From assembly GCF_055900595.2 (NCBI RefSeq), contig NZ_CM148325.1: 64,000 nucleotides of DNA; one strand, given 5' to 3'. Positions 32,825 through 34,938 of this stretch are shown here, one piece after another. How positions within the stretch are numbered: position 1 is the first letter of the stretch; each line of letters begins with the position of its first letter. The position numbers and the translations under genes were made by a program. The notes below the pieces were generated by a model. It saw only the letters and a list, made by a program, of their open reading frames with translations, was not told where the DNA came from and did not search any database.

Positions 32825-32905
32825 ATGAAAATTGCTGATCAATTTCATGATGAGTTATGTAGACTGGCCGCCATTAATTTTGAGGCACACGTACTACATG
32901 GCTGA
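32825..32905 (+). CDS. yrbN: Small protein YrbN (26 aa) overlapping the deaD start
   Basis: ATG at 32825 gives [26 protein letters not shown], stop TGA at 32903-32905; recalled as the annotated small ORF upstream of deaD. Confidence 0.5.
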
Positions 32906-34787
32906 ATTCGAAACCACTTTTGCAGATCTGGGCCTGAAGGCTCCTATCCTTGAAGCCCTTAACGATCTGGGTTACGAAAAACCATCTCCAATTCAGGCAG
33001 AGTGTATTCCACATCTGCTGAATGGCCGCGACGTTCTGGGTATGGCCCAGACGGGGAGCGGAAAAACGGCAGCATTCTCTTTACCTCTGCTGCAAAATCT
33101 TGATCCTGAGCTGAAAGCACCACAGATTCTGGTGCTGGCACCGACCCGCGAACTGGCGGTACAGGTTGCTGAGGCAATGACGGATTTCTCTAAACACATG
33201 CGCGGCGTAAACGTGGTTGCCCTGTACGGCGGCCAGCGTTATGACGTGCAATTACGCGCCCTGCGTCAGGGGCCGCAGATCGTTGTCGGTACTCCAGGCC
33301 GTCTGCTGGACCACCTGAAACGTGGCACTCTGGACCTCTCTAAACTGAGCGGTCTGGTTCTGGATGAAGCTGACGAAATGCTGCGCATGGGCTTCATCGA
33401 AGACGTTGAAACCATTATGGCGCAGATCCCGGAAGGTCATCAGACCGCTCTGTTCTCTGCAACTATGCCGGAAGCGATTCGTCGCATTACCCGCCGCTTT
33501 ATGAAAGAGCCGCAGGAAGTACGCATTCAGTCCAGCGTGACTACCCGTCCTGACATCAGCCAGAGCTACTGGACTGTGTGGGGGATGCGTAAAAACGAAG
33601 CGCTGGTACGTTTCCTGGAAGCGGAAGATTTTGATGCGGCGATTATCTTCGTTCGTACTAAAAACGCGACTTTGGAAGTGGCAGAAGCTCTTGAGCGTAA
33701 CGGCTACAACAGCGCTGCACTGAACGGTGACATGAACCAGGCGCTGCGTGAGCAGACTCTGGAACGCCTGAAAGATGGTCGTCTGGATATCCTGATTGCG
33801 ACCGACGTTGCGGCCCGTGGCCTGGACGTTGAGCGTATCAGCCTGGTAGTTAACTACGATATCCCGATGGATTCCGAGTCTTACGTTCACCGTATTGGTC
33901 GTACAGGCCGTGCGGGGCGTGCTGGTCGTGCGCTGCTGTTCGTTGAGAACCGCGAGCGTCGTCTGCTGCGCAACATTGAACGCACTATGAAGCTGACCAT
34001 TCCGGAAGTAGAACTGCCGAACGCAGAGCTGCTGGGCAAACGCCGTCTGGAAAAATTCGCCGCTAAAGTACAGCAGCAGCTGGAAAGCAGCGATCTGGAT
34101 CAATACCGTGCACTGCTGAGCAAAATTCAGCCGACTGCAGAAGGTGAAGAGCTGGATCTCGAAACTCTGGCAGCCGCACTGCTGAAAATGGCACAGGGTG
34201 AACGTACTCTGATCGTGCCGCCAGATGCGCCGATGCGTCCGAAACGTGAATTCCGTGACCGTGATGACCGTGGTCCGCGCGATCGTAACGACCGTGGCCC
34301 GCGTGGCGACCGTGAAGATCGTCCACGTCGTGAACGTCGTGATGTTGGCGATATGCAGCTGTACCGTATTGAAGTGGGCCGCGATGATGGTGTTGAAGTT
34401 CGTCATATCGTTGGCGCGATTGCTAACGAAGGTGACATCAGCAGCCGTTACATCGGTAACATCAAGCTGTTTGCTTCTCACTCCACCATCGAACTGCCGA
34501 AAGGTATGCCGGGTGAAGTGCTGCAACACTTTACGCGTACTCGCATTCTCAACAAGCCGATGAACATGCAGTTACTGGGCGATGCACAGCCGCATACTGG
34601 CGGTGAGCGTCGTGGCGGTGGTCGTGGTTTCGGTGGCGAACGTCGTGAAGGCGGTCGTAACTTCAGCGGTGAACGCCGTGAAGGTGGTCGTGGTGATGGT
34701 CGTCGTTTCAGCGGCGAACGTCGTGAAGGCCGCGCGCCGCGTCGTGATGACTCTACTGGTCGTCGTCGTTTCGGTGGTGATGCGTAA
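32898..34787 (+). CDS. deaD: Cold-shock DEAD-box ATP-dependent RNA helicase DeaD (CsdA)
   Basis: ATG at 32898 gives [16 protein letters not shown]..., 629 aa; motifs [25 protein letters not shown]; RGG-rich C-terminus. Confidence 0.9.
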
Positions 34788-34826
34788 TTCGCTGACCCGC
34801 AGAACTCTGCCGTAAAGTAAAATATA

Positions 34827-34858
34827 CAGCCCCGATTTTAACAATCGGGGCTTTTTTT
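34827..34858 (+). terminator. deaD intrinsic terminator
   Basis: cagccccgatt-ttaacaa-tcggggcttttttt. Confidence 0.65.
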
Positions 34859-34867
34859 CTGTCTTTT

Positions 34868-34888
34868 GTACTCGTGTACTGGTACAGT
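34868..34888 (+). promoter_or_regulatory. Candidate TrpR operator in the mtr promoter
   Basis: gtactcgtgtactggtacagt contains repeated ACTNGT/GTAC half-sites like trp operators; about 50 bp upstream of mtr. Confidence 0.4.
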
Positions 34889-34938
34889 GCAATGCATAAC
34901 AACGCAGTCGCACTATTTTTCACTGGAGAGAAGCCCTC

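Follow-up and report, generated by a model that had tools for sequence, protein, structure and literature searches.

In-frame length alleles at short direct repeats in the C-terminal tail of the Escherichia coli RNA helicase DeaD

The deaD Locus and Its Product

The window analyzed here, the whole 64,000-nucleotide stretch taken from contig NZ_CM148325.1 of assembly GCF_055900595.2, carries deaD in the gene order nlpI-deaD-mtr, which agrees with the annotated K-12 RP437 region, nlpI-(yrbN)-deaD-mtr. The features at the locus are as follows:

32898..34787, + strand: deaD/csdA coding sequence, cold-shock DEAD-box RNA helicase, 629 aa plus stop (assigned from NCBIfam, Pfam and K-12 identity)
34599..34784, + strand: DNA for the R/G/E-rich, predicted disordered C-terminal tail, last 62 codons, aa 568-629 (Pfam PF12343)
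34828..34862, + strand: deaD intrinsic terminator, a 10-bp stem with 6 G-C pairs, then a T-run

The product matches the NCBIfam equivalog PRK11634 (NF008642) across residues 1-629 at 1397.5 bits, where the cut-off is 989, and it is the K-12 protein WP_001295553.1 without a differing residue, all of the nucleotide differences from K-12 deaD being synonymous. Its Pfam domains are PF00270 DEAD (30-196), PF00271 Helicase_C (232-340), PF25399 DeaD_dimer (374-443), PF03880 DbpA RBD (489-558) and PF12343 DeaD_C (568-629). This is the order expected for DeaD/CsdA – helicase core, dimerization domain (DD), RNA-binding domain (RBD) and tail – and the layout described for CsdA (PMC11850223). The 3'UTR directly past the deaD stop codon is unusually divergent.

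Extent and Composition of the C-terminal Tail

An earlier, sequence-only reading of this DNA had noted a near-repeat peptide at the DeaD C-terminus, and the open reading frame 32898..34787 does end with the peptide that it quoted (aa 568-610); the 24-nt DNA unit quoted along with it lies at 34635-34658, with one synonymous difference. That reading gave the arginine/glycine-rich tail the last 75 codons. The tail is real but shorter, comprising the last 62 codons (34599-34784), and the first 13 codons of the longer range encode the end of the RNA-binding domain and a connector. PF12343 matches aa 568-629 with 45.6 bits against a gathering score of 23.3, over profile positions 1-62 of 62 and at the extreme C-terminus.

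The 62 residues include 19 R, 20 G, 11 D/E and 4 F, for a net charge of +8, and are organized as GERR(E/G)GGR-type near-repeat blocks with F, S and N residues between them. Intrinsic disorder of the tail is predicted by the AlphaFold2 model, in which pLDDT is below 50 at residues 562-629 (38-42), with no secondary structure, and 85-97 in the folded domains. Solved DeaD structures end at residue 564, and the tail is present in no PDB chain. The description of the tail as an RGG tail was apt as to its richness in arginine and glycine but not as a strict motif call: because the RGG tripeptide occurs once (with RG three times in all), "RGG" is a loose label here, and a regular-expression scan of the tail for tri-RGG, di-RGG and tri-RG with 0-4-residue spacers found none of them. 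A minimal di-RG motif is present once, as RGGGRG at residue 572.

That the tail binds RNA is suggested by the literature on CsdA C-terminal regions together with the net positive charge; the main RNA-binding platform of CsdA is the RBD, not the tail (PMC11850223). DeaD phase-separates both in vitro and in vivo (PMC12758526).

Repeat Structure of the Tail DNA

Repetition in the last 75 residues goes beyond their composition. Pairs sharing 4-, 5- and 6-mers number 18, 11 and 7, compared with shuffle means of 1.4, 0.2 and 0.03, and 0 of 5000 shuffles matched the observed counts. In the DNA, Tandem Repeats Finder identified one array, with 72% matches and a score of 106:

34600..34694, + strand: imperfect tandem array, 33-nt period, ~2.9 copies, encoding GGERR(G/E)GGR(G/N)F(G/S) units

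A repeat search yielded imperfect-copy families of 44, 23 and 15 nt, spaced 33/45 nt. The longest exact direct repeat in the tail is the 18-nt GGCGAACGTCGTGAAGGC, at 34635 and 34713, and the spacing is in frame for every exact repeat of at least 8 nt. Because 8-66% of synonymous re-encodings of the tail attain the observed DNA repeat values, the DNA repeats are accounted for by peptide sequence and codon usage, being no longer than peptide repeats and codon bias predict.

The same statistics bear on whether the repeats act as nucleic acid, through mRNA structure, a 3'-derived small RNA or an antisense gene, with no role for the protein. A 113-aa open reading frame on the opposite strand (34572..34913) and the divergence of the 3'UTR just past deaD could be taken in favor of such a role. 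However, that reading frame is the T-rich mirror of the GGT/CGT codons, an Rfam search of the region returned no family at gathering score, shuffled sequences fold as well as the tail mRNA (z = -0.68), and synonymous re-encoding reproduces the repeat statistics. Moreover, the substitutions between alleles are synonymous, and therefore selection acts on the peptide. We give a purely nucleic-acid role almost no credence.

Length Alleles and Their Breakpoints

It had been proposed from the sequence that tail length is plausibly a strain variable, a claim that an identical repeat number in all E. coli deaD alleles would contradict. Comparison across alleles showed that the repeat number is not identical: in complete E. 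coli genomes (n=5,426) there are nine non-canonical tail lengths, +30, +15, +12, -12, -15, -33, -66, -78 and -132 nt, at a low overall frequency (~4.4%). All nine are in frame and were verified by sequence and by gene length, the genes are intact per PGAP annotation in finished genomes, and each of the nine variant proteins recurs unchanged in public sequence collections (3 to at least 1000 contigs).

The tail had also been called slippage-prone, and the breakpoints agree with this: every one of them falls at a short direct repeat, which slippage would predict. The repeats are of 5-18 nt at all nine alleles, each pair having been either listed beforehand or generated by probe design. The units and repeat pairs, all on the + strand, are:

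34602..34616, + strand: 15-nt unit GGTGAGCGTCGTGGC (GERRG), with copies of the 8-nt repeat TGGCGGTG at its two ends (34598 and 34613)
34642..34653, + strand: 12-nt unit GTCGTGAAGGCG, bounded by GTCGT at 34642 and 34654, duplicated in the +12 allele
34635-34652 and 34713-34730, + strand: 18-nt exact direct repeat pair GGCGAACGTCGTGAAGGC, deletion between them giving the -78 allele (603 aa)
34617-34628 and 34683-34694, + strand: 12-nt direct repeat pair GGTGGTCGTGGT, deletion between them giving the -66 allele (607 aa)
34607-34614 and 34739-34746, + strand: 8-nt direct repeat pair GCGTCGTG, deletion between them giving the -132 allele (585 aa)
34653-34658 and 34686-34691, + strand: 6-nt direct repeat pair GGTCGT, deletion between them giving the -33 allele (618 aa)

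The 15-nt unit GGTGAGCGTCGTGGC behaves as a coding VNTR, in that GERRG stands head-to-tail at 0, 1, 2 or 3 copies among strains: 0 in ET776 (-15), 1 in the window, 2 in strain 361 (+15) and 3 in A1.S1.160 (+30). The +12 allele, taken from the MZ1211 alignment, encodes 633 aa and reads ...ERREGGREGGRNF.... Among the deletions, the -78 allele is found in SCEC020001 (gene of 1812 nt; protein on 687 contigs), the -66 allele in 14EC047 and in O145:H28 strains RM12761/RM13516 (150 contigs), and the -33 allele, from which one whole 33-nt period is gone, in K56-43-un (gene of 1857 nt; 125 contigs). The -132 allele, carried by FXCREC035 and FXCREC004, leaves only 18 aa of tail, and its protein is on 4 contigs.

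The -78 deletion is both recurrent and recent. It was found on two haplotypes, and EC0026B_C and R1, laboratory siblings of strain EC0026B, differ by the -78 indel with 0 further differences in ~810 nt. This 78-bp difference was already tabulated in a 2023 paper (Table 1, from hybrid assemblies; PMC10569738).

Could the length variants be sequencing or assembly artefacts, in which repeats were collapsed or expanded? Error is possible for some database proteins that have odd ends or large internal duplications and are known from single metagenome or Logan contigs (P0001-P0004, P0027, P0029, P0086, P0101). For the nine alleles we consider it very improbable: they are present in finished genomes as PGAP-intact genes, the contigs that carry identical proteins are independent and come from several sources, the 78-bp difference was seen independently in hybrid assemblies (PMC10569738), and repeats of at most 18 nt are far below read length.

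A number of other candidates were set aside. Proteins P0001-P0005, which score above the query self-score, owe their extra length to internal duplication outside the tail, which rules out tail expansion in them. DeaD lengths of 651 and 646 aa in the databases are upstream start-codon calls, so they represent no tail variation. A deaD match on a "plasmid" was rejected because the records are chromosome-sized or megabase and merely labelled plasmids.

Frequency of the Variant Tails

The canonical 629-aa protein is found in ~95% of E. coli genomes, and a non-canonical tail in ~239 of 5,426 complete ones (4.4%). The junction probe for +12 was positive in exactly 158 of the 5,426. Probes for the other junctions gave 86 positive genomes, of which ~81 are real variants; the ~5 false ones (e.g. 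YZ22PE67, YZ22PE68, 400625) have the window's 3'UTR in common. The +15 probe (win_dup15) accounted for 33 of 60 sampled rows, and the counts for +15 (~47 genomes), -78 (~21) and -15 are extrapolated from those 60 of the 86. Because the probes detect repeat-bounded events only, the support that this census lends to repeat-bounded breakpoints is partly circular; no probe was involved in finding the first four alleles.

Alternatives to these probes performed poorly. Identity and coverage bands from a BLAST search with the whole tail as query are unreliable as a census, returning only 9 low-coverage genomes and leaving the -78 group, extrapolated to ~21 genomes, invisible. Canonical-length SNP backgrounds can mimic a probe junction, as in the strain 104 type (GGC>GGT) and 2018-05-2CC.

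The commoner variants look clonal. Tail DNA of the +12 allele is at least 99% identical across 160 genomes, and many +15 strains carry ST361 in their names. Variability among close relatives was seen in one case, EC0026B_C versus R1; elsewhere ~95% of genomes are canonical.

These frequencies bear on a rival reading of the tail as an adaptive "tuning knob" or contingency-type locus, in which frequent and selected repeat change adjusts the helicase, its condensates or growth in the cold. Some alleles are indeed common (the counts given above for +12, +15 and -78, the last with its 687 contigs), the -78 deletion has at least two origins and is polymorphic inside one clinical clone, and the 15-nt unit ranges from 0 to 3 copies. 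Yet a single length prevails in ~95% of genomes and is identical in Salmonella, and the common variants have the clonal appearance just noted. The repeats are imperfect (72%, 2.9 copies) and exact over 18 nt at most, whereas phase-variable loci have long perfect tracts, and they are not enriched above the codon-bias expectation. All tail changes are in frame, and therefore no on/off switching results. We think a tuning knob unlikely.

A further proposal, that the alleles are neither neutral nor slightly deleterious but a natural series tuning DeaD RNA tethering and the condensate threshold, and selected in certain clinical lineages, strikes us as quite improbable. If it were true, shortening (-78 at least twice, -66 and -132) or lengthening (the +12 clade and the +15 ST361 clone) would have been selected, for example by way of the condensates marked by DeaD that have lately been connected with antibiotic persistence.

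Conservation within and beyond E. coli

The Salmonella DeaD tail has the same length as that of E. coli, with 58 of 62 residues identical (94%), and the Klebsiella tail has one extra unit. In distant DeaD orthologs with an RBD, the tail is basic, ranges over 0-296 aa and is built of unrelated repeats or sequence. Because variation is low-frequency (~4.4%) and 629 aa is dominant and common to Salmonella, the tail is constrained rather than hypervariable, with one length mostly held.

Such conservation is unusually high for a generic disordered region, and could point to a specific partner over nonspecific electrostatics. The repeat units might then bind a defined partner – an rRNA element, RNase E or the degradosome, or a ribosomal protein – and be disordered only when alone. 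Along with the Salmonella identity, the purely synonymous differences between the window and K-12 favor a module of this kind, as does the existence of a curated Pfam family for the tail; Iost and Dreyfus suggested that C-terminal extensions confer partner or RNA specificity (PMC1616957). Against it, the AlphaFold2 model has no structure in the tail, the distant orthologs retain the RBD next to tails that differ in length and sequence as described above, natural lineages retain alleles in which 22-44 of the 62 residues are missing, and the DeaD/CsdA literature covered here names no partner for the tail segment. We judge a partner-specific module to be rather improbable.

Proposed Origin and Role of the Tail

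We favor, at a probability of roughly 0.8, the reading that this is a known disordered helicase tail with a rare, slippage-type, in-frame length polymorphism, whose 629-aa form is kept by purifying selection. The tail itself has been described already; what is added is the series of nine E. coli length alleles (~4% of genomes) and their repeat-bounded breakpoints.

In the mechanism that we propose, the 62-residue, net-basic, mixed-charge, low-complexity tail that follows the RBD most likely serves as a flexible arm that acts electrostatically and without sequence specificity. Through it the dimeric helicase would gain further contacts with RNA and a set of weak, multivalent interactions. These would help to keep DeaD on large, structured RNAs and play a part in the condensates that DeaD is known to form. 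Because a short peptide recurs in a narrow codon set (CGT, GGT/GGC, GAA), its DNA contains direct repeats of 5-18 nt, all spaced in frame. From time to time these repeats could slip during replication or recombine over their short homology, as the anatomy of the breakpoints suggests, with the loss or duplication of 12-132 nt. The outcome would be a low-frequency series of in-frame length alleles, and purifying selection probably keeps 629 aa the prevailing length in both E. coli and Salmonella.

Relation to Known Systems

The closest relative is the Pfam family PF12343 itself, the "DeaD helicase C-terminal disordered region". In profile match, post-RBD position and predicted disorder the window tail is a member, with no difference in kind.

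Eukaryotic RGG/RG boxes, such as LAF-1 and Ded1-type tails, are likewise R/G-rich, disordered, low-complexity regions on RNA helicases. The DeaD tail differs from them in having one RGG and three RG, with acidic residues that alternate with the arginines (GERRE) in mixed-charge blocks. Arginine methylation is typical of the eukaryotic boxes and is not known in the DeaD tail. Phase separation is common to the eukaryotic RGG/RG proteins and DeaD (PMC12758526).

Among bacterial DEAD-box helicases, RhlE-type proteins resemble DeaD in bearing a basic C-terminal intrinsically disordered region (IDR). In RhlE1 and RhlE2 of P. aeruginosa these regions evolve fast and influence how the protein binds RNA, its phase separation and its functional specificity (PMC11260450). 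The RhlE-type helicases belong to another subfamily, in which neither a DD nor an RBD precedes the tail and the sequences are unrelated. The DeaD tail is short and shows strong conservation among enterics.

At the DNA level, the GERRG 15-nt unit resembles coding minisatellites and VNTRs, in which short coding units change copy number in frame. The tail differs from contingency loci: its repeats are few and imperfect and form no long near-perfect tract of short units, variation is rare (~4%), frameshift switching of expression on or off is absent, and nothing points to a role at the cell surface or in host interaction.

The alleles provide a natural series of tails, with 18 to 72 residues after the RBD and a protein that is otherwise identical. 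The series is of modest added value, and is usable to probe how the length of a disordered region relates to RNA binding, phase separation, cold growth and ribosome assembly. The EC0026B case is also a caution for variant callers, in that the "78-bp insertion in deaD" of the literature is more convincingly explained by a repeat-mediated deletion, against which the retained ancestral allele looks like an insertion.

Length alleles of the DeaD tail

The sequence-only reading had suggested that the repeat tail at the DeaD C-terminus varies in length among strains, and comparison of repeat counts across E. coli alleles bears this out: counts differ, with nine non-canonical in-frame lengths among 5,426 complete E. 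coli genomes. The features concerned are as follows.

32898-34787, + strand: deaD/csdA ORF, 629 codons, with nlpI upstream and mtr downstream
34599-34784, + strand: R/G-rich tail, last 62 codons (aa 568-629), matching PF12343

With the NCBIfam DeaD equivalog PRK11634 (cut-off 989) the ORF reaches 1397.5 bits, and Pfam places on it the DEAD, Helicase_C and DeaD dimerisation domains, a DbpA-type RNA-binding domain (RBD, aa 489-558) and, on aa 568-629, the PF12343 "DeaD helicase C-terminal disordered region" (45.6 bits versus 23.3). WP_001295553.1 is the DeaD accession both in K-12 and in a strain that matches the window at 100% DNA identity in this region, a shared accession that identifies the window product as canonical E. 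coli DeaD/CsdA. Many database entries use an upstream TTG or ATG start (+22/+17 aa), giving E. coli proteins of often 651 aa and Salmonella proteins of 646 aa, and length comparisons must therefore allow for start choice. This alternative start region lies at 32832-32897 in the window and at 1376-1456 in the compared locus L001; the K-12 annotation instead has a 26-aa ORF, yrbN, overlapping the deaD start.

Because BLAST identity bands made a poor allele census, we designed probes spanning hypothetical repeat-mediated junctions, such that canonical alleles should give no 28-nt seed. This set matched 86 of the 5,426 genomes, and a dedicated +12 junction probe matched exactly 158. The probes detect repeat-bounded events alone, in four SNP backgrounds, and the overall figure of about 239 genomes with non-canonical tails (4.4%) is therefore a lower bound.

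Table. Tail-length alleles, named by nucleotides gained or lost: carriers and source; genomes of 5,426 (~, extrapolated from the 60 of 86 matches listed); contigs with the verbatim variant protein.
+12: duplication in MZ1211, 633 aa (BLAST); 158; at least 1000
+15: duplication in strain 361, 634 aa (BLAST); ~47; at least 1000
-78: deletion between 18-nt repeats in SCEC020001, 1812-nt gene (junction probes and inspection); ~21; 687
-66: deletion in 14EC047 and two O145:H28 strains, 607 aa (BLAST); 3; 150
-15: ET776 (junction probes and inspection); 2-3; 43
+30: A1.S1.160, three GGERR units in tandem (junction probes and inspection); 2; 3
-132: deletion in FXCREC035, 585 aa (BLAST); 2; 4
-12: Ec1120; 2; 9
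-33: K56-43-un (junction probes and inspection); 1; 125

Three breakpoints fall in direct repeats that had been listed beforehand: TGGCGGTG at 15-nt spacing for +15, GGTGGTCGTGGT at 66-nt spacing for -66 and GCGTCGTG at 132-nt spacing for -132. The +12 breakpoint lies at GTCGT with 12-nt spacing, as read off the sequence. When each variant tail was joined to the canonical N-terminus and searched in a collection of 15 billion proteins, all nine proteins were found verbatim, on 3 to at least 1000 contigs, which excludes assembly artefacts as the source of these alleles.

A common canonical-length allele, WP_001301504.1 (GFGG>GFSG; about 334 genomes, including strain 104, locus L015), carries a synonymous GGC>GGT change, equivalent to window ~34650-34652, that makes the first ERREGG DNA copy the same as the second and imitates a junction-probe match. 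This change could reflect gene conversion between repeat copies or plain drift.

Recurrence and a published insertion

The common variants (+12 and +15) look clonal, unlike -78. The +12 tail DNA is at least 99% identical across 160 genomes, its carriers being, among others, E. coli 042 and one O7:H15 ST70 strain, and many +15 genomes bear the names ST361 or "strain 361". The -78 deletion is found in two haplotype backgrounds, which differ from each other at 6 sites in ~800 nt (SCEC020001 versus EC0026B).

EC0026B_C and EC0026B_R1 (L023 and L024) are laboratory-derived siblings of a clinical isolate, and a 78-nt indel is their sole difference over ~810 aligned bases. In the published account, C is identical to the progenitor, while the nitrofurantoin-resistant isolate R1 has 14 substitutions, its siblings having none, and is listed relative to C with "Insertion: 78 bp, deaD, G585(26 aa)R586" (PMC10569738, Table 1). 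We find that the "insertion" gives R1 exactly the canonical deaD allele. Because slippage could not regenerate the 60 nucleotides of unique sequence among the 78, we infer that the true event was a deletion on the C/progenitor branch, the ancestral allele being kept in R1. The exact canonical allele, together with the 14 substitutions, suggests that R1 descends from a separate subpopulation within the clinical isolate rather than being a fresh mutant.

Repeats in peptide and DNA

The near-repeat peptide described from sequence is present letter for letter at aa 568-610, and its repetition far exceeds what composition predicts: shared peptide 4-, 5- and 6-mers number 18, 11 and 7 against shuffle means of 1.4, 0.2 and 0.03, with 0 of 5000 shuffles reaching the observed counts. 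Two details needed correction. The R/G-rich part is the last 62 codons, not 75, and the "RGG" label is loose, as RGG occurs once and scanning the tail for tri-RGG, di-RGG and tri-RG motifs returned none. GERR(E/G)GGR followed by F, S or N is a better unit formula. The tail holds 19 R, 20 G, 11 D/E and 4 F, for a net charge of +8.

At 34600-34694, Tandem Repeats Finder detects a period of 33 nt (2.9 copies, 72% matches, score 106), and a repeat search of the tail DNA found imperfect families of 44, 23 and 15 nt spaced by 33/45 nt. Exact direct repeats reach at most 18 nt, and all those of at least 8 nt are spaced in frame. When the peptide was rewritten with synonymous codons taken from deaD outside the tail, or when the tail codons themselves were permuted, 8-66% of trials matched or exceeded the observed DNA in longest exact repeat and in counts of repeated 8- and 12-mers. 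The tail DNA is thus not specially repetitive beyond its peptide and codon set (17 CGT, 14 GGT, 7 GGC), and the substrate for slippage arises incidentally from peptide repetition combined with a restricted choice of codons. There was no sign of an RNA-level function: Rfam gave no family at gathering score in the region, and folding of the tail mRNA is no stronger than that of shuffled sequences (z = -0.68).

Constraint and relatives

The tail is not hypervariable. The 629-aa length is kept in about 95% of complete E. coli genomes, and window and K-12 tails differ only synonymously. Salmonella canonical DeaD is also 629 aa, its tail identical at 58 of 62 residues with no indel; longer Salmonella forms (+21, +22 and +26 aa) are rare and occur on few contigs. 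E. marmotae DeaD has 627 aa, and the Klebsiella protein (643-644 aa) carries an additional GERREGGR unit as well as a second copy of APRRDD(A/S)S. In 105 distant RBD-retaining orthologues the post-RBD tail spans 0-296 aa (median 47), almost always basic, with lineage-specific repeats unlike GERRE. The picture is one of steady in-frame indel input and, over the long term, tail turnover from lineage to lineage, with stabilising selection holding a single length in the E. coli/Salmonella group.

Disorder and proposed function

In an AlphaFold2 model from a 59-sequence alignment, block-mean pLDDT is 85-97 for the greater part of the core, the dimerisation domain and the RBD. Between residues 562 and 629 no position reaches 50 (block means 38-42) and there is no secondary structure, and solved structures cover residues 6-210, 218-445 and 482-564 only. 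The predicted disorder agrees with the Pfam annotation.

The tail is thus net-basic, of mixed charge and predicted to be disordered, and it follows the RBD of a dimeric helicase; its alleles are in frame, with breakpoints bounded by direct repeats. According to PMC11850223, which summarises Xu et al. 2017, CsdA is laid out as core, dimerisation domain, RBD and C-terminal tail and holds RNA mainly through the RBD. DeaD phase-separates in vitro, and its condensates also form inside cells (PMC12758526); in other DEAD-box helicases of bacteria, disordered regions modulate both RNA binding and phase separation (PMC11260450). The tail would most likely serve as a flexible, nonspecific electrostatic arm adding RNA contacts and multivalency, with a length that would matter enough for selection to maintain; variants would arise by replication slippage or short-homology recombination. 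We consider it improbable that, in certain lineages, the length alleles serve as adaptive settings of condensate or cold-shock behaviour.

As a PF12343 member within textbook DeaD/CsdA, the tail is a feature already known. In composition and setting it is similar to the low-complexity RGG/RG tails of eukaryotes, though not in their defining motifs, and it acts as a weak coding VNTR, not a contingency locus. What is new is only the list of naturally occurring length alleles, together with the reinterpretation of one published "insertion".

Other observations in and around deaD

The central Arg/Asp-rich linker (34227-34361, aa 444-488) also has period-9 DNA repeats and is predicted to be disordered (AlphaFold2 pLDDT below 50 at 457-480); P0080, a Salmonella allele on 11 contigs, lacks 3 residues there. 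This linker may be a second slippage-prone low-complexity segment. Several E. coli/Shigella database entries (P0001-P0005; for example P0005 from Shigella flexneri and P0003 from nr) have large in-frame internal duplications of 27-200 aa outside the tail, putatively real tandem duplications or assembly errors. No mobile deaD copy lies behind the "plasmid" matches H426-H433, which are mislabelled chromosomes or chromosome fragments (0.35-5.4 Mb).

An antisense ORF of 113 aa (34572-34913, minus strand) has threonine-rich runs that mirror the GGT/CGT codon repeats; it shows no sign of being a gene and is a mirror artefact. Between the deaD stop and the terminator, 40 nt (34788-34827) differ from K-12 at ~14 positions plus a 2-nt indel, the adjoining coding DNA differing by less than 2%; a 421-nt query across this patch matched the window at 99% identity or above in just 12 of 5,425 genomes. 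The patch looks like a localised replacement or a hypervariable 3'UTR. In strain Survcare321 (NZ_CP076301.1, locus L003), IS200C directly follows the deaD terminator in place of the normal deaD-mtr intergenic sequence.
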